Virus record (IMG/VR): IMGVR_UViG_3300005613_000042
Location: 1-64,000 of that record
Length of the DNA stretch: 64,000 bases
Strand: one strand, 5' to 3'
Source: a virus
Lineage: Duplodnaviria > Heunggongvirae > Uroviricota > Caudoviricetes
Shown piece after piece: positions 635-60,883 of this stretch. The notes below the pieces were generated by a model. That model ran no database searches. It saw only the letters and a list, made by a program, of their open reading frames with translations, and was not told the DNA's origin. The stretch's first letter is position 1. The number at the start of each line of letters is the position of its first letter. Made by a program: the position numbers and the translations under genes.

Positions 635-718
635 GGAGGATTGGCAGAGTGGTTAATGCAGCAGTTTGCTAAACTGTCTACCTTCGGGTAGCACTGGTTC
701 GAATCCAGTATTCTCCGC
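635..718 (+). tRNA. tRNA-Ser (anticodon GCT), class II with long variable arm
   Basis: GGAGGAT acceptor pairs with ATTCTCC (one G-T wobble). D-arm GCAGAGTGGTTAATGC. Anticodon stem-loop CAGTT-TGCTAAA-CTG. Long variable arm TCTACCTTCGGGTAGCAC. T-arm TGGTTCGAATCCA. Confidence 0.8.
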
Positions 719-881
719 TTACAAATTCAATGAAATGACTTTCAAAAGAGTTCAAATCGACCGGGTTAAAGAGGCCAAACGAATGTCTCGTAACATGAAT
801 GCTAAGTTGGATTCATACGCGTTCGCTAGTAAAAAGCGATATGTACGTAACGTTAAACACAAATCTAAATTTTTAGAATAC

Positions 882-954
882 GCGGACTAAGCTCAACTGG
901 ACGAGTACCACACATCCTGTGTGGGGGTTGGTGGTTCGAATCCACCAGTCCGCT
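882..954 (+). tRNA. tRNA-Gly (anticodon TCC), unusual A at position 33
   Basis: Perfect 7-bp acceptor GCGGACT/AGTCCGC. D-arm GCTCAACTGGACGAGT. Anticodon stem CCACA/TGTGG with loop CATCCTG. T-arm GGTGGTTCGAATCCACC. Confidence 0.7.
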
Positions 955-981
955 CTATTTTTTAACATTAAATGAAAAGTT

Positions 982-1182
982 ATGGAACAATTTTATTTGG
1001 TAAAGGTAAAGGTTGAGTTTGAAACCGATGCTGGAAAGATGAAAACTGGCACGGAATCTTACTTGGTTAGTGCTGTAAGTGTTACAGATGCTGAGGCTAA
1101 AATCAATGATGAATTTTCTACCTATCCACACGAATGGGAGGTAAAATCTGCGGCTAGTACCAGAATTATCAAAGTCATCTAA
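982..1182 (+). CDS. hypothetical small protein (66 aa)
   Basis: ORF on the + strand between tRNAs, co-directional with all confident genes. The overlapping minus-strand ORF is rejected. Confidence 0.4.
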   Translation: MEQFYLVKVKVEFETDAGKMKTGTESYLVSAVSVTDAEAKINDEFSTYPHEWEVKSAASTRIIKVI

Positions 1183-1273
1183 TTGTAGTTTTTCTGACAA
1201 TAAATTTGGGGAGGTGAGTTTGGTTTTTACCTAAAAGTTACTATATTAGTACTGTAATCAAACACACTTCCCC

Positions 1274-1525
1274 ATGTCAGATCTTACTAACATCGCTTCC
1301 AGAATTTCAGAAATTCTCAATGAATATCAGCCCGATGAACTTCGGGTTGAAGCCGATGACAGAATGATTCGAGTTCGCTGGAATTATTGGGACCGATTTT
1401 CTTCTGAAATTGAAGACCGAATTCTCAATGAAGCCATTCCTAAAGGGTTTTGTACCTACTGGGATGCTGAAGATCATGATGATCGGCTTTCCACTTATGT
1501 ATTTATCGTAGATACAGAATTTTAA
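1274..1525 (+). CDS. hypothetical protein (83 aa)
   Basis: ORF on the + strand. Confidence 0.45.
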   Translation: MSDLTNIASRISEILNEYQPDELRVEADDRMIRVRWNYWDRFSSEIEDRILNEAIPKGFCTYWDAEDHDDRLSTYVFIVDTEF

Positions 1526-1566
1526 ACAACACAACATACTCACGTAGCTCAAACTCATACTTAGTA

Positions 1567-1926
1567 ATGAAATTTTTTGAATTTTCCCAAAACAACTCCG
1601 GCGGTAGTTTTGAGGTCAATGATAAGTTATGCTATCGATTGTTCATTGAAGCAGATTCCCGCAAAGATGCCATTTATATGGCCGAAGAAATGGGCGTTTA
1701 CTTTAATGGGGTTGATGATGGTATTGATTGTCCCTGTTGTGGTAATAGATGGTACACTCCTGATGATATTAAATTTCCACTTAAATATTCGGAAAAAAAA
1801 GAATTTCACAATATCGAGGAATACGCCCAACACCTAGCCGACCATTATGGATGGACCAGTCCAGATGCTCGAATCTTCTACAAAGATGGCACCGTAAAAG
1901 AAATTTTCATTAATAAAAAGAAATAA
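1567..1926 (+). CDS. hypothetical protein (119 aa), Cys-rich CPCCGNRW motif
   Basis: ORF on the + strand. The alternative-frame ORF 1577..1837 is rejected. Confidence 0.5.
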   Translation: MKFFEFSQNNSGGSFEVNDKLCYRLFIEADSRKDAIYMAEEMGVYFNGVDDGIDCPCCGNRWYTPDDIKFPLKYSEKKEFHNIEEYAQHLADHYGWTSPDARIFYKDGTVKEIFINKKK

Positions 1927-1929
1927 ACA

Positions 1930-2376
1930 ATGGGACTTGACCAAATGTTGTATCGCAGAACTTATGTAGGTAGGACTTATAAAGTTACTGTGGAAAATCC
2001 TGATGAAAAGTACAATCTACCCAAAATCGATAAGGACAAAATCGTAGATGTTGTAGAAGAGGTAATGTATTGGAGAAAAGCAAATCATATTCACAAGTGG
2101 TTTGTTGATAATATCCAAAATGGAGTAGATGATTGCGGTACTTATGCTGTACCACTTGAAAAGCTACAGGAATTGGTAGACCTATGTAAACAAGTATTGG
2201 AAAATCCTGAAAAGGCTAGCGAACTTCTCCCAACCCAATCTGGATTTTTCTTTGGGGGTGTAGAATATGATGAATACTATTTCGAAGACCTAGAAAAAAC
2301 CATTAAGGGGTTGGGAGAAATCATGCCAACTATTGATGGGTTTAATAATATTCTTGAATATTCATCTAGTTGGTGA
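1930..2376 (+). CDS. hypothetical protein (148 aa)
   Basis: ORF on the + strand, tightly spaced after the previous gene. Confidence 0.5.
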   Translation: MGLDQMLYRRTYVGRTYKVTVENPDEKYNLPKIDKDKIVDVVEEVMYWRKANHIHKWFVDNIQNGVDDCGTYAVPLEKLQELVDLCKQVLENPEKASELLPTQSGFFFGGVEYDEYYFEDLEKTIKGLGEIMPTIDGFNNILEYSSSW

Positions 2377-2406
2377 TAATACTCATAACATTAAAAACCC
2401 AATAAA

Positions 2407-2592
2407 ATGGATGGTAGAAAACTAGCATTTGGTATCCCAACAGTTTTATTTGACTTATGGGCAATACCCGAAATTTTAAATCTTTTAACCAAAACTAGTG
2501 ATATGGCAAATTTTGTAGGAGTCATATTTCTAGTATCTGTAATTGTCCTACATTTCCTAACTTTTAAACTTTATAAACTGAAACCCAAATGA
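2407..2592 (+). CDS. small predicted membrane protein (61 aa)
   Basis: Two hydrophobic segments. Stop overlaps the next start (ATGA). Confidence 0.4.
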   Translation: MDGRKLAFGIPTVLFDLWAIPEILNLLTKTSDMANFVGVIFLVSVIVLHFLTFKLYKLKPK

Positions 2593-3419
2593 AAAAAGTA
2601 GTTGCAATTTTTATGTTGAGCATGTTTGCTCTAACTTCCACTTCTTGTTATAAGAAAATTAATGTAGGCCATACTGGCATCCGTGTAAACAAGTATGGTT
2701 CTGAAAAGGGTGTTGACCCAGCAACCGAAGTTACTGGTGTTGTGTGGTATGCTCCGTGGAAATATGATGTTTACGAAATGCCCAATACAGTTTGGAACGT
2801 GTTTTGGGACGATGATAAAGAGTTCCGCGTTTCTACCCAAGATGGTGCAGTATTGAGGTTTGATGTAGGTATGAATGCATCAGTACCAGCTGATAATTCT
2901 ATTCCAGTATTTATTAAATATTTCGAACGAATTGAACGTCTTCGAAATAACGTATGGCGTGATAAGGCCCAAAAGGCATTTAATCATGTTGCATCCTTTT
3001 ATACTGTAGATTCTCTTATTAACAATCGAGCATCCTATGAAGAACAAGCAGTAGCTATGGCAATCGAGCTTCTTGAAAAAGAAGGGTTGGATGTAGATGA
3101 CCTATTCATTTCAAAAGACTTGCGATATCCAAAGGAAATTGATGAAGCTATTAATAAGAAAATTATGGCTAAACAAGAAACTGAGGAAGCGGAAGAACGA
3201 GCACGTAAAGCAGAGGCTGCAGCTCGTGAGCGAATCAATAAGGCATATGGAGAAGCAGAGTCTATGCGAATTATGGCTGAGGCTGAATCTGAAGCATATG
3301 CTATTAAGAAACGAGAACTAAATGAACTTCTAATTCGCCAACAATGGATTGAAAAATGGGATGGTAAACTACCTGTTTATGGTGAACTACCACTTCTATA
3401 CAAAGATGTTCAAAAGTAA
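2589..3419 (+). CDS. SPFH/band-7 (prohibitin/HflKC-like) domain lipoprotein
   Basis: N-terminal signal peptide with lipobox-like LTSTSC. C-terminal Ala/Glu-rich coiled region (AEERARKAEAAARERINKAYGEAESMRIMAEAESEAYAIKKRE) typical of SPFH proteins. Confidence 0.55.
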   Translation: MKKVVAIFMLSMFALTSTSCYKKINVGHTGIRVNKYGSEKGVDPATEVTGVVWYAPWKYDVYEMPNTVWNVFWDDDKEFRVSTQDGAVLRFDVGMNASVPADNSIPVFIKYFERIERLRNNVWRDKAQKAFNHVASFYTVDSLINNRASYEEQAVAMAIELLEKEGLDVDDLFISKDLRYPKEIDEAINKKIMAKQETEEAEERARKAEAAARERINKAYGEAESMRIMAEAESEAYAIKKRELNELLIRQQWIEKWDGKLPVYGELPLLYKDVQK

Positions 3420-3441
3420 TCTTTGAAAATTTAGTAATATT

Positions 3442-3498
3442 CTTTGGAATTGCGACCACTAGTTTGTATATTTACAACAGCTGGTCGCAGTTCCAAAG
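3442..3498 (+). other. large imperfect inverted repeat / stem-loop (18-bp arms, about 21-nt loop) immediately downstream of the SPFH gene
   Basis: ctttggaattgcgaccac ... ctggtcgcagttccaaag. No T-run follows. Confidence 0.4.
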
Positions 3499-3528
3499 AA
3501 ATTTCTAAATAAAACATTAACTAAATAA

Positions 3529-3601
3529 GGGCCCATAGCTCAGCGGTTAGAGCAGTTCACTCATAATGAATTGGCCGTAGGTTCGAATCCTACTGGGCCC
3601 A
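3529..3601 (+). tRNA. tRNA-Met (anticodon CAT); could instead be an Ile-lysidine type
   Basis: Acceptor GGGCCCA/TGGGCCC. D-arm AGCTCAGCGGTTAGAGC. Anticodon stem-loop GTTCA-CTCATAA-TGAAT. T-arm GTAGGTTCGAATCCTAC. Confidence 0.8.
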
Positions 3602-3636
3602 CTATAAGCATACATTTAATCAAAAATACATAATAT

Positions 3637-4656
3637 ATGAAAAAAAAATATCTAACATATGATGATATTCAACTTGTACCAAACTATTCACAAATTGAAT
3701 CACGTCTATTGATAGACCTTTCTACTAGAGTAACTAAAAACTATTCTATATCAATCCCCATTATTGCAGCACCAATGGATACTGTGTGTGAGTTTGATAT
3801 GGCGTTTAAATTATACAATTTAGGTGGCGTTGGGTGTGTACATAGATTCATGTCCATTGATGAACAAACTGAGATTGTTAAAAAACTTCATAATAATGGT
3901 GTGAGTCCAATAATGGCTGCAGTTGGTGTAAAATCAGAAGATAGAACTAGAGCTAAATCACTATCAGATTCTGGAGTTCAAATTTTGGTAATAGATGTAG
4001 CACATGGCCACCATCAAAATGTAATTAACATGGTCAAATGGTGTAAAGATAATTTACCAACCCATGTTGATATTGTAGCCGGTAACATTGCTACTGCTTC
4101 CGCTGCTATTGATTTGTTAAACGCTGGTGCAGATGCTCTACGTGCTGGTATTGGGAACGGCTCATTATGTACTACTAGAATTAAAACTGGATTTGGAATT
4201 CCAAGTGTATCATGTATAGAAGATATATACAATTCAATGCTTAATGTATCAGAATCTATACCAATATGGGCAGATGGTGGTATCAGAAATAGTGGAGATA
4301 TTGCTAAAGCGTTAGCGATAGGTGCAGACTGTGTTATGCTTGGTAGTATATTGGCTGGTACTGAGGAAGCACCAGGGCAAATTATTGATAAAAATAATAA
4401 ATTATACAAACGATATCGTGGAAGTGCGAGTAGGGAAACTAAATTGACTCACGGCCAAGAGGATAGAAACATTGAAGGTGAATCTACAATAATTCCATAT
4501 AAGGGTGGAGTAAAATACATCATTAATGATATTATAGATGGAATTAGGTCAGCTTTATCTTATGCTGGCGCTAGTACCATCGATGAATTTTTACCCGAAT
4601 ATGTTATAATTACTAATGCTGGGCAGATTGAAGCTAGACCTCATTTGTTAGGTTAA
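3637..4656 (+). CDS. guaC: GMP reductase / IMP dehydrogenase-family oxidoreductase (no CBS insert, GuaC-like)
   Basis: Catalytic Cys loop GIGNGSLCTTR. ADGGIRNSGDIAKALAIGADCVMLGS phosphate-binding region. Length 339 aa. Confidence 0.7.
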   Translation: MKKKYLTYDDIQLVPNYSQIESRLLIDLSTRVTKNYSISIPIIAAPMDTVCEFDMAFKLYNLGGVGCVHRFMSIDEQTEIVKKLHNNGVSPIMAAVGVKSEDRTRAKSLSDSGVQILVIDVAHGHHQNVINMVKWCKDNLPTHVDIVAGNIATASAAIDLLNAGADALRAGIGNGSLCTTRIKTGFGIPSVSCIEDIYNSMLNVSESIPIWADGGIRNSGDIAKALAIGADCVMLGSILAGTEEAPGQIIDKNNKLYKRYRGSASRETKLTHGQEDRNIEGESTIIPYKGGVKYIINDIIDGIRSALSYAGASTIDEFLPEYVIITNAGQIEARPHLLG

Positions 4657-4729
4657 AAAAAATGTGTTTTCACGCTTGTTTAATATGCTTCTGTTGGGTA
4701 TATTGTAACTCTGATTGATAGTTAAACAT

Positions 4730-4802
4730 ACTCACGTAGCTCAATGGTTAGAGCAGATGGCTTATATCCATCAGGTTGCAGGTTCAAGTCCTGTCGTGAG
4801 TA
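4730..4802 (+). tRNA. tRNA-Ile (anticodon TAT, decodes AUA)
   Basis: Acceptor ACTCACG/CGTGAGT. D-arm GCTCAATGGTTAGAGC. Anticodon stem GATGG/CCATC with loop CTTATAT. T-arm GCAGGTTCAAGTCCTGT. Confidence 0.75.
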
Positions 4803-4818
4803 CCAAATCTCTAAAAAT

Positions 4819-4890
4819 GGTCAAGTGGCTGAGTGGCTAGGCGGAAGACTGCAAATCTTCTTTACATGGGTTCGAATCCTATCTTGACCT
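4819..4890 (+). tRNA. tRNA-Cys (anticodon GCA)
   Basis: Acceptor GGTCAAG/CTTGACC. Anticodon stem GAAGA/TCTTC with loop CTGCAAA. T-arm ATGGGTTCGAATCCTAT. D-stem has one non-canonical pair. Confidence 0.65.
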
Positions 4891-4937
4891 CATCGCCAAT
4901 GGTACGATATTGTTATTACAGTTTTTAAATCTATAAA

Positions 4938-10148: not shown

Positions 10149-10394
10149 CAAGTAATTCTAAAATTTTTTAGTATATTTATACTAGAACGTTGAGTGATAC
10201 ACGCGGCAAAACTGGACTGGAGTTCGAATCTCCACATATCCACAATTCTTATTTAAAAATGGGTATGCATGGAATTGACAGGTTGTATGGCATATCATGA
10301 GTTCACATCGCTTAAATGGCGAATATTCATATGCAGTTGCTGCTTGAACAAGGTTCAACCAACAACTAACGGGATGACTACCGTTCAAGGTCAT

Positions 10395-10426
10395 ATGGGG
10401 TAGTTAACGCTACCCCATTTTTTTAC
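10395..10426 (+). terminator. rho-independent terminator
   Basis: atggggtag-ttaacg-ctaccccat hairpin (9-bp stem) followed by a 7-T run. Confidence 0.7.
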
Positions 10427-10462
10427 AAATTGTTTTAACCCTCTGAGAACCGTTTTAAGAGT

Positions 10463-11534: not shown

Positions 11535-11553
11535 ACTTAGATATTTATAAGTA

Positions 11554-42334: not shown

Positions 42335-42585
42335 ATTTAAATACATTTTCAAATAGAAATTATATGATTATCAGTTCATCTGATGTTCCAAACATTGATT
42401 TTAGTGAAATTTTACAAGAAAGCGCAGATACACTTAGGCGTTCAGTAGATGGTAATACAGTTGTTGTAAAGTGGGAATCCGAATCAATTCCAAATAGTAT
42501 AGATGCTTTAACAACCAAAGATGGTCCATATAATCATGAAGAAATTTCTATAATAATGGTAGGTGATAATTGGATGTTTCCTTGA
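42331..42585 (+). CDS. hypothetical protein (84 aa)
   Basis: ORF on the + strand, overlapped start. Confidence 0.4.
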   Translation: MNLNTFSNRNYMIISSSDVPNIDFSEILQESADTLRRSVDGNTVVVKWESESIPNSIDALTTKDGPYNHEEISIIMVGDNWMFP

Positions 42586-42620: not shown

Positions 42621-43364
42621 ATGATTTCAATTTATAAATTGTTAGAGAATGTGGTATCTGAAGGTGTATATGACCCAGGTATTTTAAAAGCAATTTTTCT
42701 CGCAGGTGGTCCTGGTAGTGGTAAAAGTTATTCAGTAAACCAAATATTTGGAGTTGATAATATAATGAAGGGCACAAGTGCTCTTGGATTGAAAGTTGTC
42801 AATAGTGACCCTGCATTTGAACAACAGCTAAAAAAGGTTGGTGTTAGTCCAAAAAAATTAGGTCAAATGACTGATAAGATTTTCCAATACTACACTACAC
42901 GCCCAGATTCACCTCGTGCTAAAGCAAAACAAACGGTCAAAAAATTACGTGCTATGTATGAGTCTGGAAAATTGGGACTTATTATTGATGGTACTGGTAA
43001 AGATTATGCTAAAATTGAAAAGGACAAGAAAAGACTTGAAGAGTTGGGATATGATATCGCAATGGTATTTGTTAATACAAGTTTACAGGTAGCACTACAG
43101 AGAAATGCAAACCGTGATAGGTCATTACCTGAAGATTTGGTTGAGAAGGGATGGCTAGATGTTCAAAATAATATAGGAAAATTTCAATCTCTTTTTGGAA
43201 ATGATATGATAATAGTAGATAATAGCGAGGCCGGCGATTTCAACAAAATGCACGCAAAAAAGATTCGTGCGGCAGAAAGGTTTGTAAAATCACCAGTTAA
43301 AAACCCAATTGGTAAAAAGTGGATTGAAAATGAACTAAAATTAAGGAAAATTGATACAAAATGA
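42621..43364 (+). CDS. P-loop nucleoside/nucleotide kinase-like protein
   Basis: Walker A LAGGPGSGKSYS. LIIDGTG segment. Lies directly upstream of, and overlapping, the NMNAT-like domain gene. Confidence 0.5.
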   Translation: MISIYKLLENVVSEGVYDPGILKAIFLAGGPGSGKSYSVNQIFGVDNIMKGTSALGLKVVNSDPAFEQQLKKVGVSPKKLGQMTDKIFQYYTTRPDSPRAKAKQTVKKLRAMYESGKLGLIIDGTGKDYAKIEKDKKRLEELGYDIAMVFVNTSLQVALQRNANRDRSLPEDLVEKGWLDVQNNIGKFQSLFGNDMIIVDNSEAGDFNKMHAKKIRAAERFVKSPVKNPIGKKWIENELKLRKIDTK

Positions 43365-45661
43365 ACTTAGGCGAATATATAGCTTATCAATTATTAGAAG
43401 TAGAGTTATCTGGTGATATAAAGCACATTGTTGCATTGTATCCTGGTAGATTCCAACCAATGGGCACTCATCATGCAAAAACATATAAATGGGTTGAATC
43501 TAAATTCGGAGATGCGTGGGTTGTTACAAGTGATAAAGTTCAATTACCAAAGTCGCCTCTAAACTTCAATGAAAAGAAAAAAATTATCAACAAACACGGA
43601 ATCAGTAAAGTAGCTAAGGTAAAAAATCCATACCAAGCAGTAGAAGTATTGAGTAAATATGACCCTAAAACAACTGCGGTAGTATTCATAGTTGGTAAGA
43701 AAGACCAGGAACGCCTTGGTGGTAAATTCTTTCGACCGTGGCGCGGCGTGGCTGAAGTTGGATACCGAGATGGTGCTTATACAATGATTGCACCTCATAT
43801 ATCCTTAAACATACCTGGTGTGGGAGAAATGTCGGGCACAACGATTAGACAAGCTCTTTCTCAATCCCCTGATGGACCTGAATCTAAGAAATTATTCAAG
43901 GGTATCATGGATTGGTATGATGCTGGTATCCATAAAATGATATCTGGCAAACTAATGGTGAACGATATAATTGAAAAGTTTATAAATAACTCAGACTTTA
44001 CAGATACATTACATGAAGCCTCCGTTACTAGTATTTCTCAAGCTGGCGATGTAGATGATGGTCCACAAACTTGGTATAAAAATCAATCTTCTTATAAGAG
44101 TGCCACAAAATCTATAGCCGACCGACTTGGTATGAAAGTTCTTAATTATCTAAGTGGTGATGGTGATTTTGAAGCTGAGTTAACTAGATATCAACATATA
44201 ACTAGGTCACCCAGTACATTTCCAGCCGGCGTACAAGGTAAGACAACTACAATTAACCAAGATGACTTATCTACAAAGACGGCATATAAAGTTTGGAAAC
44301 GATATATTCAAAACATAGTTAGGTCGGTTGGTATGCAATTTCTGGATTATTTAGGAGCTGAATACTCTATAGATGTAGATGAACCAAATACAGAATTAGA
44401 TGATTTATTAGGTGAGGGTCTTTTAGTAGAGACTCCAGATGAGGATGTTGGTAAAGTTCAATGTATGGTGTGTGGGTGTATGATGAAACAAATTCAATAC
44501 AGACATTTAAAATATAGTCATAATGGTATGACTATGCCGGAATATAAAGATAAATACCCAAATGCACCACTTATATTAGACTCCGCTAAAAACACAGGTA
44601 ATAAAAATCCGATGGCTAATCCCATTGTTAGGGAAACGCATAAAAAAAGTGTAACCACAGATGAATACCGAGAAAACCAAAGAATTGGTTCTACTGGCAG
44701 AATCGCAAGCGATGAAACTAAGAAAAAAATGTCTGAAAATAATGCGATGCATTCTTCTGAAAACAGAAAAAAGGTATCGGATGGTGTTCGAAAGGCATAT
44801 GAAAAAGACCCATTATTGAGAGAAAAACGATCGGTGACTGGTAAGAAATATGGGTTTGGTAATAGTAAAACTCAAGATAAAATAGCTGAAGTTAGAGGTA
44901 GTAAACGGGGTGATGAGCGTGATGAATTTGAAAGATATCAAGAATTGGTTAGAATACTTTCAAATAAAAATTATCAAACATACTTCAAAGAAATACCAAA
45001 TGCTAAAAAGCGGAGTAGAGATTATCATTTGGACCACAAATTTTCAATATCAGAAGGATTTAGAAGAAATATTCCAGTCGAAATAATTTCTCATTATTCA
45101 AACTTTGAAATCATGCATGGTCGATTGAATGAGAGTAAGGGAACTAAATCATCAATATCATTACGAGAATTAATTTTTGATATAGAATCATCCAATCATC
45201 CAATTGGACCCCGTAATATCAAGCAATTACTCACTTGCGGTGGGGCTTACGGACACATGCGACATCCGTTCGATGACAACAATCTAACTTTTGGTGATAT
45301 AAAGAACATTATTAGATTATCTCTTCAAGGTAATCTAAGTATGGAAAAGGTAACTACTGAAAAATGTATATCTGGAGATAGTATATTATTTCTTGAAACG
45401 TTGGGGCCTACTAAAATTAAGGATGTAGTTGATGGTGATTTGGATGATGCAGTGTTAGCGTATAATAGTCAAGATGATAAAAATGAATATTTGCCCATAG
45501 TTCATAAGTTTAATAATGGGGAGGTAGATGAGTGGATTGTGATAGAGTTAGAAGATGGAAAGGAAATAAAAGTTACTCCGAATCATAAGATTTTTGTAAA
45601 GAATAAAGGATTTGTGAGAGCTGATGAATTGACAGAATATGATGAGCTTAAGATAGTTTAG
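43361..45661 (+). CDS. N-terminal half of a fractured multidomain gene: NMNAT-like HxGH nucleotidyltransferase domain + C2H2-like Zn finger + NUMOD3/HNH endonuclease module + ligase motif-I region (N-extein) + split-intein N-fragment (last 98 aa)
   Basis: GRFQPMGTHH ... SGTTIRQAL (archaeal-NMNAT-like). CMVCGC ... HNGMTMPEYKDKYP. NUMOD3-like GNKNPM repeats. HNH DYHLDHKFSISEG...N. The ORF ends ...VTTEK|CISGDSILFLE...KVTPNHKIFV...ELKIV* (intein blocks A and B). Confidence 0.6.
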   Translation: MNLGEYIAYQLLEVELSGDIKHIVALYPGRFQPMGTHHAKTYKWVESKFGDAWVVTSDKVQLPKSPLNFNEKKKIINKHGISKVAKVKNPYQAVEVLSKYDPKTTAVVFIVGKKDQERLGGKFFRPWRGVAEVGYRDGAYTMIAPHISLNIPGVGEMSGTTIRQALSQSPDGPESKKLFKGIMDWYDAGIHKMISGKLMVNDIIEKFINNSDFTDTLHEASVTSISQAGDVDDGPQTWYKNQSSYKSATKSIADRLGMKVLNYLSGDGDFEAELTRYQHITRSPSTFPAGVQGKTTTINQDDLSTKTAYKVWKRYIQNIVRSVGMQFLDYLGAEYSIDVDEPNTELDDLLGEGLLVETPDEDVGKVQCMVCGCMMKQIQYRHLKYSHNGMTMPEYKDKYPNAPLILDSAKNTGNKNPMANPIVRETHKKSVTTDEYRENQRIGSTGRIASDETKKKMSENNAMHSSENRKKVSDGVRKAYEKDPLLREKRSVTGKKYGFGNSKTQDKIAEVRGSKRGDERDEFERYQELVRILSNKNYQTYFKEIPNAKKRSRDYHLDHKFSISEGFRRNIPVEIISHYSNFEIMHGRLNESKGTKSSISLRELIFDIESSNHPIGPRNIKQLLTCGGAYGHMRHPFDDNNLTFGDIKNIIRLSLQGNLSMEKVTTEKCISGDSILFLETLGPTKIKDVVDGDLDDAVLAYNSQDDKNEYLPIVHKFNNGEVDEWIVIELEDGKEIKVTPNHKIFVKNKGFVRADELTEYDELKIV
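45365..45658 (+). mobile_element. split intein, N-terminal fragment (IntN, 98 aa)
   Basis: Block A CISGDSIL and block B TPNHKIF. The ORF stops right after the Hint N-domain. Confidence 0.65.
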
Positions 45662-45686
45662 AGTACCATCTGTTTTTTCAATAAAT

Positions 45687-46535
45687 TTGATATTTATAAG
45701 TATGATGAAAAAATGTAACTATTGTGGGGTGATTACAAACAGTATTAGTTCCCATATGCGAGATTGTTCTGATTATATATATTGGAGAGATAAAACATTT
45801 ACTAGAGAATTTCTCTATCAAGAATATGTAGAGAAAGGGAAATCAGCTATTCAAATTGCGAATGAAAATGGGTTTAGGTCGTCTAGTGCAATAAATAGAA
45901 TGCTTAAAAAGCATAATATTAACATAAGAGGAATTAGTACTTCACATAATATACCTTTGTATAAAAAAAGAATAGAACAAACTAATGTAAATAGATTCGG
46001 TGCACCGAATCCATTATGCAAAGGAACCGTTCCTTTTAAAAAAAGAAATAAAACAGTTATGGAACGGTATGGGGTAGATAATGTCAGGAAGCATCCAGAT
46101 GTTATTGCCAAGATAAAAAAGTCTTTAGCCCAGTGGAGAAATGAAAATGGACATTCTACGTTGGGATTGACACATTCATCGGAAACTAAAAATAAAATGA
46201 GAAAATCTGCTATATATAATATACAGTCTTGCGTTGGACAATTATCTCCATCTTACAATCCATCATCAATCCCCATCCTTGAATCAAAAGCAAGGGAACT
46301 TGGCATAACCGACCTTCAACATGCGGAAAATGGCGGAGAATATCACATTAAAGAACTTGGATATTGGGCGGATGGATACAGCAAAGAGAAGAATATAGTT
46401 ATTGAGTACGATGAAAAACATCATTTTGATATAGATGGAAATTTGAAAGATAAAGATAAAACGCGTCAGAGGGAAATAGAAAATTACTTGGGGTGTGAGT
46501 TCATTAGAATTAAAGCAATGGAGACTTCTTCTTGA
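45687..46535 (+). CDS. free-standing homing endonuclease-like gene lying between the intein halves
   Basis: Sits in a different frame from the flanking intein ORFs. NUMOD-like helices. C-terminal ELGYWADGYSKEKNIVIEYDEKHHFDIDGN (Vsr/EDxHD-like nuclease motif). Preceded by a TTGATATTTATAAG motif. Confidence 0.55.
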   Translation: MIFISMMKKCNYCGVITNSISSHMRDCSDYIYWRDKTFTREFLYQEYVEKGKSAIQIANENGFRSSSAINRMLKKHNINIRGISTSHNIPLYKKRIEQTNVNRFGAPNPLCKGTVPFKKRNKTVMERYGVDNVRKHPDVIAKIKKSLAQWRNENGHSTLGLTHSSETKNKMRKSAIYNIQSCVGQLSPSYNPSSIPILESKARELGITDLQHAENGGEYHIKELGYWADGYSKEKNIVIEYDEKHHFDIDGNLKDKDKTRQREIENYLGCEFIRIKAMETSS

Positions 46536-46636
46536 AAATAAAATCAATAAAAAGGGTTAAAAATGTAGAAACTTGCTATGATATACAAGTTCCTGATAGA
46601 CATTGCTATTATGCAAATGGAATATTAGTACATAAT
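46532..46636 (+). mobile_element. split intein, C-terminal fragment (IntC, 35 aa)
   Basis: Canonical ...GILVHN followed by Thr. Same reading frame as the IntN ORF. Confidence 0.65.
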
Positions 46637-47704
46637 ACGGATGGACAAAATTTATTCATCACTTGGGCTAATGGAAAATTGAGAGCCGCTCGTAACACAA
46701 GTGATTTGAAAAGGGGTGGTATGGATGTTAAGGCTGTTGCAGCTAAGTTTGCAGGTCGTGGTAATATTGAGAAAGCATTCAATTCAGCTATGAATGATTT
46801 ATCAAAAGCTATTGGTTCACTAACAGACGCTCAAAAAGAGAAGATATTCGCTAATGGCGGTAATTGGGTAAATATGGAAATTATATATCCACCATCAGCT
46901 AATGTTATTTCATATGACGCTCCATATTTACAATTCCACAATGTATTGAGTTATTCAGGTTCCACTCCAACTGGTGAGATAACAGATGGTGCCAGAATAT
47001 TAGCCGGTATGATAAAACAAGTCAATGCGAATTTGCAAAAAACCTTTTCAATAATTGGACCGAACGTATTGACGTTAAAGGGTAGTACTGATTTTTCCGA
47101 AAAACAAGATTACTTCATAAACAAAGTTAAAAAATTACAATCTGAATTTAAGTTAAGTGATACCGCAACATTATCTGAATATCATCAAGCATGGTGGGAA
47201 CGGTTTGTGGAAAAGATGTTTCCAAACATTGATAATAGGACTAAAATGGAATTAGTTACACGATGGGCTTTTGGTGACAAGAGTTTCCGTTTAAATAAAA
47301 AAAATATCACAGATGAAACCCTCTTAGCAAAAGCTATAAAATTCGATAAGCAAAATCATCAAGACCAAATCAAGAAAAATATGTTCCCATTTGAAACACT
47401 TATTTTTGAACTTGGTGTAGAGGTCTTGAAAAATGTGGAGGGTTTCTTAGCTGCAAATCCAAATAAGACTATTCAAGGTATACGAAATGCAGTTGCAAAA
47501 TCAATTAGAGATGTTCGTAAAGGTGGTGATTTGAAAAAACTAAAAAGAATAGACCAACAGTTAGCTAAAATAAAGGCTATTGGTGGTTGGAATGCGATAG
47601 TTCCATCTGAGGGAATTGTTATGGTATACAGGGGTAACACCTACAAATTGACTGGAGCCTTCGCGCCCATAAATCAAATAACCGGGTTGATGAATTTTGA
47701 TTAA
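46532..47704 (+). CDS. C-terminal half of the fractured gene: split-intein C-fragment (35 aa) + ligase-like nucleotidyltransferase C-extein
   Basis: Start MKIKSIKRVKNVETCYDIQVPDRHCYYANGILVHN|TDGQN (intein blocks F and G, +1 Thr). The predicted splice product has ...EKTDGQNLF (KxDGxN motif I). A motif-III-like NMEIIYPPSANVISY and C-terminal EGIVMVYRGNTYKLTG (motif IV/V-like) follow. Confidence 0.6.
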   Translation: MKIKSIKRVKNVETCYDIQVPDRHCYYANGILVHNTDGQNLFITWANGKLRAARNTSDLKRGGMDVKAVAAKFAGRGNIEKAFNSAMNDLSKAIGSLTDAQKEKIFANGGNWVNMEIIYPPSANVISYDAPYLQFHNVLSYSGSTPTGEITDGARILAGMIKQVNANLQKTFSIIGPNVLTLKGSTDFSEKQDYFINKVKKLQSEFKLSDTATLSEYHQAWWERFVEKMFPNIDNRTKMELVTRWAFGDKSFRLNKKNITDETLLAKAIKFDKQNHQDQIKKNMFPFETLIFELGVEVLKNVEGFLAANPNKTIQGIRNAVAKSIRDVRKGGDLKKLKRIDQQLAKIKAIGGWNAIVPSEGIVMVYRGNTYKLTGAFAPINQITGLMNFD

Positions 47705-47721
47705 ATTAAAGGACATATTAC

Positions 47722-48156
47722 TTGAATCGTTTGATTGGAAATCTCACACAAGGGGTGATATCTATTACCCACCTGTTAATTTGGGGGTTCACTAGAGATA
47801 TGATGCCACAGATAGAAGATAAGTATCAAACTACATTTTTTAGGTATTTGAGGGACAATCTTATTAAATTCACGAAACGATTAGTTCATGTTCGTGAATT
47901 ACGACCAGCTCAAACCGAACTTAGAGTTGATATTGCACATAAGTTATTAAAATCTAATTCTACTAAACTTAAAAAACCTATTATAGTATCTTCAGATAAT
48001 TATTTAATGGATGGTCACCATCGTTGGTTTGCTTTTATACTTGATGATGCAAATATGAAAGTAAATGTTGTTAAAGTAGATTTACCTGGATCAAAGCTAC
48101 TTGATATGATGAATAAGTTTGATTATGTAGTAACCAAACCAATAGATAATAAGTAA
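47722..48156 (+). CDS. ParB/sulfiredoxin-like nuclease domain protein
   Basis: KPIIVSSDNYLMDGHHRWFA (DGxHR motif). Confidence 0.55.
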   Translation: MNRLIGNLTQGVISITHLLIWGFTRDMMPQIEDKYQTTFFRYLRDNLIKFTKRLVHVRELRPAQTELRVDIAHKLLKSNSTKLKKPIIVSSDNYLMDGHHRWFAFILDDANMKVNVVKVDLPGSKLLDMMNKFDYVVTKPIDNK

Positions 48157-59320: not shown

Positions 59321-60883
59321 ATGTATAATTATACCAAACAAAGGTGTGAAATGAAAAATACATGTAAAATTTGTAATGTGAAAATTCCTAAGAATCGCAT
59401 ATATTGTTCTAACAAATGCAAATTCTCAGATAAAGATTACAATAGAGGTAGGGTATCTAAGTCAAAGAATCCTAAAAACAAAATGTTAGTATGTAAGTTA
59501 TGTAATAAAAAAAGTAAAGATATTTTAAACAAGAGCGGGACTATAACCAAACACTTGAGTGAAGAACATTCTATTCAGAATTTTCAAAATTTCATGGACT
59601 ATTATGAAATGGTAGATATTTCACCAACTCCAAAATTAAATTGTAAAATGTGCAATTACAGTACTGTAGATGTAAATAATAAATCAGGCGCATTCACTAA
59701 ACACATTTTGCAAGAACATGGTATTACGCCAACTGAATATTGTAAAAAATTCCCAAGTGAATCTAAATTATGGTTTCATTACTTTAATGTGGAAACCAAA
59801 AAATCCATTCAGAAAAAGAAAGGAATTCAATGTAAGTTGTGTGGAAATTATTATAAGACTATTAGTAACTCTCATTGCAAATCAGTACATGGAATTACAC
59901 AAGATGATTATAAATTGAGATTTGGTGATACCATTGTCTGTGACCATACTTCAGATAAATTATCAGATATAGCCACCAATACAAATGCAACCAGAAATTG
60001 GACTTACAGGTCTAAATTAGAAATTGACATTTGTAATTTTTTAGAATCAAACAATATAAAATTTATACCCACTTACAAAAGTTTGGGAACTGAATTAGAT
60101 ATCTACACACCTGACTATAGAATTGCAATTGAAGTAAATGGGTTATTATGGCACTCGGAGTTGTTTGGAAACAAGCACAAATCATATCATTTAAACAAAA
60201 CAAATATTTGTAATGATAATGATATTAAGCTTATTCACATATTTGAAGATGAATGGAATGATAACACAGAACTAGTTAAGAAAAAACTTTTACATATTTT
60301 TAACAAAAGTGATGTACCATCGATATACGCTAGAAACACAAAAGTAGTATCAGTTAGTTCTAAAGATAGAATTGAGTTTTTAGAGAAACACCACATACAA
60401 GGTGGTGATAAAAGTGGCATATGTTATGGATTATCATATTCAGATGATTTAATTGCAATTATGTCATTTTCAAAACCAAGAATATCATTGGGGTCTACAT
60501 CAAAAAATGATACGTATGAATTAGTTAGGTTTGCTACAAACACAGATTATAGATGTGTTGGTGCAGCAGGTAAATTGTTGAAACATTTTATAAATGTATA
60601 TAACCCAAATACAATTTATTCATATGCTGATTTGAGATGGACTGGTAAAAATAACAATCTTTATACAAATCTTGGTTTCAAACTAATGTCTATCAGTAAA
60701 CCTAGCTATTGGTATATGCCAAATTATAAAACTAGAATGCATAGATATAATTTCACGAAGCATAGAATTGTATCTAAATTTGGAGGTGATATCAATTTAA
60801 GTGAATGGCAAAACATGCAAAAACTCGGATATGATAGAATATGGGATTGTGGAAATCTTAAATATCAATTAGATTTGTTATAA
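59321..60883 (+). CDS. composite homing-endonuclease-like protein: three CxxC...HxxxHG(I/M)T..EY zinc-finger repeats + Vsr/DUF559-like PD-(D/E)xK nuclease + GNAT-like C-terminus
   Basis: CKLCNKKSKDILNKSGTITKHLSEEHSIQNF, CKMCNYS...HILQEHGITPTEYCKKFP and CKLCGNYYK...SVHGITQDDY. Then PDYRIAIEVNGLLWHSE (Vsr-like). C-terminus RFATNTDYRCVGAAGKLL. Confidence 0.5.
   Translation: MYNYTKQRCEMKNTCKICNVKIPKNRIYCSNKCKFSDKDYNRGRVSKSKNPKNKMLVCKLCNKKSKDILNKSGTITKHLSEEHSIQNFQNFMDYYEMVDISPTPKLNCKMCNYSTVDVNNKSGAFTKHILQEHGITPTEYCKKFPSESKLWFHYFNVETKKSIQKKKGIQCKLCGNYYKTISNSHCKSVHGITQDDYKLRFGDTIVCDHTSDKLSDIATNTNATRNWTYRSKLEIDICNFLESNNIKFIPTYKSLGTELDIYTPDYRIAIEVNGLLWHSELFGNKHKSYHLNKTNICNDNDIKLIHIFEDEWNDNTELVKKKLLHIFNKSDVPSIYARNTKVVSVSSKDRIEFLEKHHIQGGDKSGICYGLSYSDDLIAIMSFSKPRISLGSTSKNDTYELVRFATNTDYRCVGAAGKLLKHFINVYNPNTIYSYADLRWTGKNNNLYTNLGFKLMSISKPSYWYMPNYKTRMHRYNFTKHRIVSKFGGDINLSEWQNMQKLGYDRIWDCGNLKYQLDLL

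Follow-up and report, generated by a model that had tools for sequence, protein, structure and literature searches.

How might a phage obtain a working enzyme from a gene that is broken in two directly after the codon for its catalytic lysine? This question is raised by a locus in a 64,000-nucleotide (nt) stretch of DNA from an uncultured member of the Caudoviricetes, positions 1 to 64,000 of the IMG/VR virus record IMGVR_UViG_3300005613_000042. We refer to this whole stretch as the window, and coordinates count from its first letter unless another locus is named. Two open reading frames (ORFs) in it carry the two parts of an intein, one at its end and the other at its beginning, and an ORF in another frame lies between them. 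The initial annotation, made from the sequence alone, had read the locus as a ligase-like gene fractured by a canonical split intein, a free-standing homing endonuclease gene lying between the halves. We find this very probably correct (a probability of about 0.82): the locus would represent a genuine fractured gene for an enzyme with cytidylyltransferase-like and RNA-ligase-like domains, which is made as two polypeptides, predicted to trans-splice, with a homing-endonuclease gene in the gap. The arrangement itself is already known, as fractured genes were described by Dassa et al. in 2009. What is new is the host protein, the insertion point (that of the DNA ligase of Dassa et al. lies outside our comparison), the presence of all intermediate states and a second endonuclease module, putatively of the HNH type, inserted in frame.

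Layout of the broken gene

All parts of the locus lie on the + strand. ORF1 (43361..45661) encodes 766 amino acids (aa): a 668-aa N-extein (43361..45364), composed of a cytidylyltransferase-like domain, a variable linker, the HNH insertion and 42 aa of a ligase-like domain, and the 98-aa N-terminal intein fragment, IntN (45365..45661 including the stop codon), which contains Cys1 (block A) and TPNH (block B). The C-terminal part of ORF1 reads ...SMEKVTTEK, then CISGDSILFLETLG...VTPNHKIFVKNKGFVRADELTEYDELKIV, and ends at a TAG codon (45659-45661). ORF3 (46532..47704) is in the identical frame (both starts are 2 modulo 3). It consists of the 35-aa C-terminal intein fragment, IntC (46532..46636), which carries blocks F and G and ends ..YDIQVPDRHCYYANGILVHN, and a 355-aa C-extein plus stop codon (46637..47704) that starts at Thr+1; its head reads (M)KIKSIKRVKNVETCYDIQVPDRHCYYANGILVHN, followed by TDGQNLF.... 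The coordinates and residues that the initial annotation gave for both ORFs hold, down to the GILVHN at the end of IntC and the Thr after it.

The ORF between them is in a different frame and fills the gap, as had also been noted; it is its start that needs revision. Mechanically, this ORF extends from a TTG at 45687 to 46535 (282 aa). The real start is more likely ATG 45702 or 45705 (MMKKCNYCG...): the orthologues from loci L003 and L001 also keep the CxxC...H...C finger that follows. From ATG 45702, the free-standing homing-endonuclease gene spans 45702..46535 and encodes 277 aa. The order along the strand is therefore the ORF1 stop, a 40-nt spacer that serves as the endonuclease-gene leader and contains conserved motifs (45662..45701), the endonuclease gene, and a 4-nt overlap of the latter with the start of IntC. 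ORF3 can only start at TTG 46532, in an overlap with the TGA that ends the middle ORF: the frame is open only from 46514, and there is no upstream ATG or GTG in it. A GGAG sequence is found 8 nt 5' of this TTG, within the 3' end of the endonuclease gene; the 2009 gene-breaking model had predicted the downstream start and ribosome-binding site in this very place (PMC2677866).

The break separates the two sides of a conserved motif. The motif I lysine is the final residue of the N-extein (codon 45362-45364), and the KxDGxN motif is rebuilt in the window only when this residue, K668, is joined to TDGQN. When we used the predicted spliced core as a query, 1,724 homologues were found, and most of the best ones are single proteins of 600-700 aa. 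The uninterrupted homologues, which number in the hundreds, read ...LESxATEKTDGQNLFITW... across the junction (..ATEKTDGQNLFITW..), exactly as the joining proposed in the initial annotation would have it. From IMG/VR we kept 80 related loci for comparison: 72 of them are uninterrupted at TEK|TDGQN, three have a split intein and five are ended by a contig edge. The uninterrupted homologues thus place the intein between the Lys and the Thr of the invariant K-x-D-G-Q-N motif. At the nucleotide level, the intein-free junction of locus L004 differs from the spliced sequence of L003 at only one of 60 positions.

The intein and its kinship with NrdJ-1

Both fragments are recognized by the Pfam model Intein_splicing: IntN matches positions 10-92 of the 155-position profile (E value 5e-8) and IntC matches positions 122-155 (E value 3e-5). 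From these spans, the two matches are complementary and represent parts of one domain. Joined together, IntN and IntC align over their full length with the solved NrdJ-1 intein (8ubs_A, E value 1.2e-18) and, less strongly, with the DnaB, DnaX, RecA and gp41-1 inteins. Identity to NrdJ-1 is approximately 46% (42% for IntN and 56% for IntC), and the split falls in the same loop as in NrdJ-1. All expected blocks are present: Cys1 (CISGDSIL), TPNH in block B, YDIQV..CYYANG in block F, ILVHN in block G, and Thr+1. Residues T71, P72 and H74 are invariant among six aligned inteins. Thus, the description of this element as a canonical split intein is borne out; the initial annotation had named missing blocks as a reason to abandon it, and blocks A, B, F and G all align.

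The similarity to NrdJ-1 (PDB 8ubs/9omb) goes beyond the catalytic positions: the motifs ..TP(N/D)H..(K/T)KN(K/R)G(F/Y)VRADELT..DEL.. and ..YDIQ....(Y/F)AN.ILVHN are common to both inteins. In both, IntN is acidic and IntC is basic; the net charges in the window are -11 and +3, and the same polarity was reported for the NrdJ-1 halves by Dassa et al. 2009 (PMC2677866). On the other hand, the window intein resides in a different host protein, its junction residues are Lys-1 and Thr+1, and its 98-aa IntN and 35-aa IntC align with short gaps relative to the solved NrdJ-1 chain. Given this fairly close kinship, in particular the 56% identity of IntC, orthogonality to NrdJ-1 is not to be assumed, and it is plausible that the two inteins would cross-react.

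Allelic states at the insertion site

The layout of stop, spacer, endonuclease gene and restart is not limited to the window. It is also found in L001, L006 and L072 (73% C-extein identity), in L003 (86% C-extein identity) and in L084 (approximately 53% intein identity), and proteins P0257, P0242 and P0245 are further N-halves ending in a Hint N-fragment. A close comparison is that of L002, L003 and L004, which come from the JGI metagenomes 3300022200, 3300025687 and 3300025647 and are 99.2-99.6% identical over the 1,065-nt C-extein. L004 has no intein, and its site reads ..GCTACTGAAAAAACAGATGGACAAAAT... In L003, both the split intein and the endonuclease gene are present. L002 lacks the endonuclease gene: its IntN stop and the ATG of IntC are separated by a 10-nt spacer (AGGCCTCTTT) that gives an AGAGG ribosome-binding site (junction ..AAAATAGTTTAGAGGCCTCTTTATGAAAATAAAATC..). 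The presence and absence of the endonuclease gene at more than 99% flank identity indicates its recent gain or loss. The few differences between these three loci are concentrated in the 100 nt that adjoin the insertion site, a pattern that fits the trace expected from homing co-conversion.

Two further states were identified in more distant relatives. In L085 (positions 1-2082; protein P0269), the same K|T site is occupied by a mini-intein of 139 aa that is contiguous and has no endonuclease; it matches Intein_splicing over positions 2-155 of 155 with 39.5 bits (cut-off, 35.8), and the break of the split alleles maps to its loop ..LIINRNALNSSMISD... In L084, the same split-intein gap holds another, diverged Vsr-like endonuclease gene (2210-3136 of that locus, 308 aa) with a classical ..EINGDYWH.. 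core.

Read as a series, the states at this insertion point are the steps that the published gene-breaking model numbers I, II and III. The balance tips slightly towards a broader interpretation, namely that this gene family keeps every stage of gene breaking at one site: empty, interrupted by a contiguous mini-intein, split with either of two diverged Vsr-like genes, and split without one, with an independent in-frame HNH element in addition. Since three of the states occur in phages that are more than 99% identical, the elements would be moving now.

The endonuclease gene and its leader

In the product of the gene in the gap, a C2HC finger and helical DNA-binding modules at the N-terminus precede a C-terminal core that is probably Vsr-like/PD-(D/E)xK (..GYWADGYSKEKNIVIEYDEKHHFD..). 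The PHROGs database labels it, weakly (E value 3e-6), as a homing or HNH endonuclease. A total of 524 homologues were identified; the C-terminal 40% of the protein is 60-70% identical among them, and the N-termini vary. Among 39 relatives, 18 contain NUMOD3, 13 weakly match DUF559, the Vsr-like domain, and four contain the I-TevI zinc finger, and there are helix-turn-helix matches as well. In the AlphaFold model (predicted local distance difference test score, pLDDT, of 84), the C2HC finger and the helical modules are visible. Searching with this model, Foldseek returned the catalytic domain of I-Bth0305I (3r3p_B; probability 0.72, template modelling score 0.48), Vsr (1cw0; probability 0.66) and PvuRts1I/AbaSI, all weakly, and also RAP-domain mitoribosomal proteins (probability 1.0, E value 0.014).

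A link to Vsr-like enzymes runs through L084. Its endonuclease has a catalytic domain that matches phage genes annotated as VSR endonucleases (1e-6 to 1e-7), and hhalign matched the profile of the window's endonuclease family to it with 97.4% probability (E value 1e-11). The alignment register reaches the catalytic core and sets GYWADGY..IVIEYDEKH against YFYD..ILVEINGDY. Within the family, E214, E218, D229 and E240 are invariant, with H246 and D257 kept in at least 90% of the members. Judging from their spacing and from the hhalign register, these residues may correspond to the composite EDxHD motif that was defined for Vsr-like homing endonucleases of the I-Bth0305I type (PMC3239194). The endonuclease thus probably belongs to the Vsr-like/EDxHD family, an assignment drawn from weak matches.

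The 40-nt leader contains two motifs, ACCATCTGTTTTT (45665-45677) and GATATTTATA (45689-45698). Neither of them varies among the window, L003, L001 and L084, whose endonuclease proteins are only 26-53% identical. There are five exact copies of GATATTTATA in the window, all on the + strand: in the leader (45689) and at 11540, 42584, 50921 and 60889. The copy at 42584 lies 37 nt 5' of the start of the ORF that begins at 42621. The number of copies with up to one mismatch was reached in none of 100 shuffles. This distribution suggests that GATATTTATA is a candidate phage promoter element; a scan for sigma-70 promoters and terminators yielded nothing over background. The leader could also form a U/A-rich hairpin, in which the U-run would pair with the AUGAUGAAAAAA start region and mask the start codon.

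The host enzyme

The N-terminal domain of the N-extein is cytidylyltransferase-like (..YPGRFQPMGTHH..), and the ligase-like part starts at GGAYGHMRHPFDD...VTTEK. The C-extein is the remainder of the RNA-ligase-like domain, with candidate motifs III (NMEIIYP), IV (PSEGIV) and V (TYKLTG). For residue numbering we use the uninterrupted homologue P0013. Motif I shows no variation at K270, D272 and G273 across 53 homologues, and Q274 and N275 are retained in at least 90% of them; the invariant E350, F369/H370, E594-G595 and K606 agree with the patterns of motifs III, IIIa, IV and V, which were assigned by eye. Weak Pfam matches occur in the family, to RNA_ligase in 21 of the 53 members and to CTP_transf_like in 16, and none of the Pfam ligase models exceeds its threshold. 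The structural model of P0013 has a mean pLDDT of 71, with values of 75-94 over most of the C-terminal domain; its best Foldseek match is T4 Rnl1 (E value 9e-3), and it has the adenylyltransferase (RNA-ligase) fold.

The label "ligase-like" in the initial annotation is supported by motif I and by the RNA_ligase matches, and it captured only part of the protein: the fusion to a cytidylyltransferase-like domain had not been seen. The host joins a cytidylyltransferase-like domain to one with the RNA-ligase fold, a combination that fits no curated family. Compared with T4 Rnl1, the fungal Trl1 ligase domain and Naegleria NgrRnl, which represent the RNA-ligase branch, the host is approximately 12-16% identical. 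It differs from them by a helical insertion of approximately 170 aa between candidate motifs IIIa and IV and by the fused HxGH-like nucleotidyltransferase domain, which has a variant GTHH/GPHH motif. A role in RNA repair or end-joining would be a reasonable inference.

Proposed mechanism and alternative explanations

In the mechanism that we propose, the acidic 98-aa IntN and the basic 35-aa IntC would bring the two halves of the host protein together. The reassembled class-1 Hint domain would then trans-splice by means of Cys1, the His of TxxH, the terminal His-Asn and Thr+1, and ligate ...VTTEK to TDGQNLF... in a product of 1,023 aa (about 116 kDa); the KxDGxN motif and a working ligase site would arise only at this point. 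The gap in the gene would be occupied by a free-standing Vsr-like (EDxHD-type) homing-endonuclease gene with its own conserved leader, which would also provide the downstream half with its ribosome-binding site and start codon. Its product would most likely cut alleles of the intein region that lack the endonuclease gene, or intein-free alleles, and the gene would spread by recombinational repair. The HNH module, in turn, would stem from an older endonuclease invasion that has become an in-frame part of the N-extein linker.

Several observations weigh against this interpretation. The start codon of IntC is TTG in the window and ATG in L001, L002 and L003, so that expression of the C-half may be low or coupled to translation of the endonuclease gene. 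For the host protein, Pfam gave no family with the 414-aa spliced core and only sub-threshold matches with the full spliced protein, and no PDB sequence was matched by a profile. For the endonuclease, the best E value for DUF559 among the relatives is 0.008; no Foldseek match to its model reached an E value of 0.001 or better; and searches of PDB sequences, with phmmer and with the 39-sequence profile, gave no match to I-Bth0305I or Vsr, as was likewise the case for the L084 endonuclease. Finally, the leader hairpin is no better than that of shuffled sequence (z score 0.2) and shows no covariation among the four sequences.

A first alternative is that the middle ORF no longer encodes an active endonuclease and is kept only for the ribosome-binding site and start of IntC, an explanation that is compatible with the splicing mechanism. 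It would account for the location of the ORF3 start and its GGAG inside or overlapping the endonuclease gene, and it agrees with the weakness of the nuclease family assignment and with the existence of an allele that lacks the endonuclease gene and has an AGAGG site of its own. However, selection acts on more than the start region. In the comparison of the window with L003, all four parts of the locus are under purifying selection, with ratios of nonsynonymous to synonymous substitution rates (dN/dS) of 0.09 for IntN, 0.37 for IntC (few sites), 0.22 for the endonuclease gene and 0.19 for the C-extein, and the value for the endonuclease applies to the whole 277 aa, not to the 3' end alone. The protein also retains all 13 invariant and 19 near-invariant positions of its family, and the presence and absence of the gene among near-identical phages points to recent gain or loss. 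We therefore regard an inactive endonuclease as unlikely.

The gene could also be split without being spliced: the halves of the intein would then only dock non-covalently, or the locus would be a remnant in decay that no longer functions. On the one hand, the TTG start of the C-half would suit such a remnant, and there is a precedent in the fractured phage nrdA, which is reported to be assembled without splicing (PMC3045599). On the other hand, the class-1 intein catalytic residues are all intact in five diverged alleles, and the dN/dS of IntN is the low value given above. Moreover, the break separates the motif I Lys from the DG that follows, and docking without a peptide bond would therefore leave the active-site loop broken. 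This makes a non-splicing gene quite improbable, and we retain trans-splicing as the preferred reading. The last alternative, a really contiguous intein with a nested endonuclease domain whose stop and frame change are errors of assembly or sequencing, which the initial annotation had raised against itself, is scarcely credible: the same stop, spacer, other-frame gene and restart recur in contigs of several other samples at 53-92% intein identity, which excludes a sequencing error, in L002 the stop is followed after 10 nt by an ATG, without any endonuclease gene, and the endonuclease gene has its own conserved leader.

A putative HNH module within the N-extein

The initial annotation had missed a second insertion. 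A putative HNH-type homing-endonuclease module of 269 aa (44432..45238, + strand; ORF1 residues 358-626) lies in frame in the linker just 5' of the ligase domain. It contains a ROS/MucR-like zinc finger (Pfam ROS_MUCR, E value 1e-4), a weak NUMOD3 (E value 0.17) and an HNH motif, HLDHK...SNFEIMHGRLNESKG (HLDHK...N...N), that was read by eye. The Pfam HNH models were not matched, and PHROG 5104, which was, has no assigned function. No intein flanks the module. A group I intron behind either insertion was also considered and rejected, as there is no Rfam intron match in the whole window.

The module is absent from P0013, P0007, L003 (..EGLLVE|GGAAGHM..) and L005 and present in L001, L004 and L085. 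It varies independently of the intein: the window has both, L003 has the intein only, L004 has the HNH module only and L005 has neither. A full-library search identified 1,539 relatives, some of them free-standing proteins of 237-266 aa and others embedded in large proteins; six of the eight embedded relatives that were scanned share the cytidylyltransferase-like N-terminus. In L086, a free-standing HNH gene occupies the corresponding position, directly 5' of a separate ligase-domain ORF, which it overlaps by 26 nt.

In one relative of the HNH-bearing proteins, the 1,053-aa protein P0253, the HNH module is found together with DUF5661 and a Tad3 (Thoeris inhibitor) domain, which suggests that anti-defence domains are fused into such multidomain phage proteins. 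A search of the window found neither the intein nor the endonuclease gene nor the HNH module a second time. A weak second match to the ROS/MucR-like zinc finger of the module (59825-59923, + strand; E value 0.03) may belong to another endonuclease or to a regulator gene.

Comparison with known systems

The fractured genes reported by Dassa et al. 2009 comprise gp41-1 to gp41-9, NrdJ-1 and NrdJ-2, NrdA-1 to NrdA-7, IMPDH-1 to IMPDH-3, DnaE, a DNA ligase, which is Felix-O1-like, and a terminase (PMC2677866). The window agrees with the published description, as the initial annotation had proposed: there are three ORFs on the same strand (the host's N-part with IntN, the endonuclease gene, and IntC with the host's C-part), the endonuclease gene overlaps the downstream start, the endonuclease is, in the window probably, Vsr-like with N-terminal DNA-binding modules, and the genes are of phage origin. 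The non-coding spacer is 27-51 nt in the published cases and 40 nt in the window, and each set has an allele without the endonuclease gene, gp41-7 there and L002 here. The differences are that the host in the window is a cytidylyltransferase-like and RNA-ligase-fold enzyme, that the insertion immediately follows the motif I Lys, that the overlap is only 4 nt, with a TTG start, and that contiguous mini-intein and intein-free alleles, the latter at more than 99% flank identity, are known at the window's site.

The endonuclease resembles I-Bth0305I (PMC3239194, PDB 3r3p) in its bipartite organization, with N-terminal DNA-binding modules and a small C-terminal nuclease. Its residues E214/E218, D229, E240, H246 and D257 can be read as the composite E-D-x-H-D, and its core is IEYDEKHH where the L084 endonuclease has (E)xxGDxWH. 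In contrast to I-Bth0305I, its gene resides in a split intein and not in a group I intron. Another parallel is nrdA/mobE of Aeromonas phage Aeh1, where a free-standing endonuclease gene is located within the gene for a phage enzyme and extends into its downstream half (PMC2677866; PMC3045599). The HNH gene 5' of the separate ligase-domain ORF in L086 occupies a position similar to that of mobE, whereas the HNH module in the window is fused on both sides and leaves the gene unbroken; the real break in the window is the one that the intein would mend.

A 2025 survey cites Dassa et al. as the sole report of intein-associated Vsr-like endonucleases, and the intein-bearing RNA ligases in that survey are of the RtcB/tRNA-splicing type. 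Our literature search found no paper joining split intein, RNA ligase, metagenomics and phage.

Neighbouring genes and the source phage

The gene upstream of the locus (42621..43364, + strand) encodes a P-loop kinase/ATPase-like protein (GGPGSGKS), which matches phrog_12810 (E value 2e-36), phrog_2071 "ATPase" (E value 1e-17) and phrog_505 "polynucleotide kinase" (E value 7e-6). Its stop overlaps the start of ORF1 by 4 nt, and it is therefore probably in the same operon; it may also be tied functionally to the ligase. The downstream neighbour (47722..48156, + strand) encodes a ParB-like nuclease-domain protein (..DGHHRW..) that matches phrog_2859 (E value 4e-23) and phrog_3041 "cytidyltransferase" (positions 563-668 of the 678-position profile, E value 2e-5). 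Because this match is to the C-terminal part of "cytidyltransferase" PHROG profiles, a ParB-like domain is fused to a similar multidomain protein in other phages, and a functional role for the neighbour may be supposed.

The source is an uncultured, T4-like phage with a genome of roughly 150 kb. Megablast gave no match to the locus among 50,697 phage records; by portal protein, Flavobacterium phage immuto (54%) is nearest to it among cultured phages, followed by Microcystis phage Mel-JY01 (50%). The window also contains a permuted, two-piece transfer-messenger RNA (tmRNA) gene at 10152-10438 (+ strand), for which ARAGORN gives the tag peptide GEYSYAVAA*; the Rfam model tmRNA_permuted matches at 10193-10347 with 56.2 bits (cut-off, 47). 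The permuted tmRNA may be a hint of the host group. Five tRNA genes are clustered at 635-4891 (+ strand): Ser-GCT, Gly-TCC, Met-CAT, Ile-TAT and Cys-GCA.

Implications

Protein ligation makes wide use of natural split inteins, of which the fastest, gp41-1, NrdJ-1 and IMPDH-1, originate from fractured genes of the same type. The locus described here offers a new split-intein pair of 98 and 35 aa with native Lys-1 and Thr+1 residues, together with four diverged natural variants and a contiguous version for comparison; the latter, the mini-intein of L085/P0269, could act as a cis-splicing reference for the split forms. Since the intein is inserted at the catalytic Lys of an Rnl-type ligase fold, the host enzyme should be inactive until it is spliced.

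The series of alleles at this site (intein-free, with and without the endonuclease gene, and with a contiguous mini-intein) is a natural test of the gene-breaking model. If the family does keep every stage of gene breaking at one site, then the order of events, the targets of the endonucleases and the cost of each state would become directly testable, and the locus would supply a split intein of the NrdJ-1 clade that works in a Lys-1/Thr+1 context.

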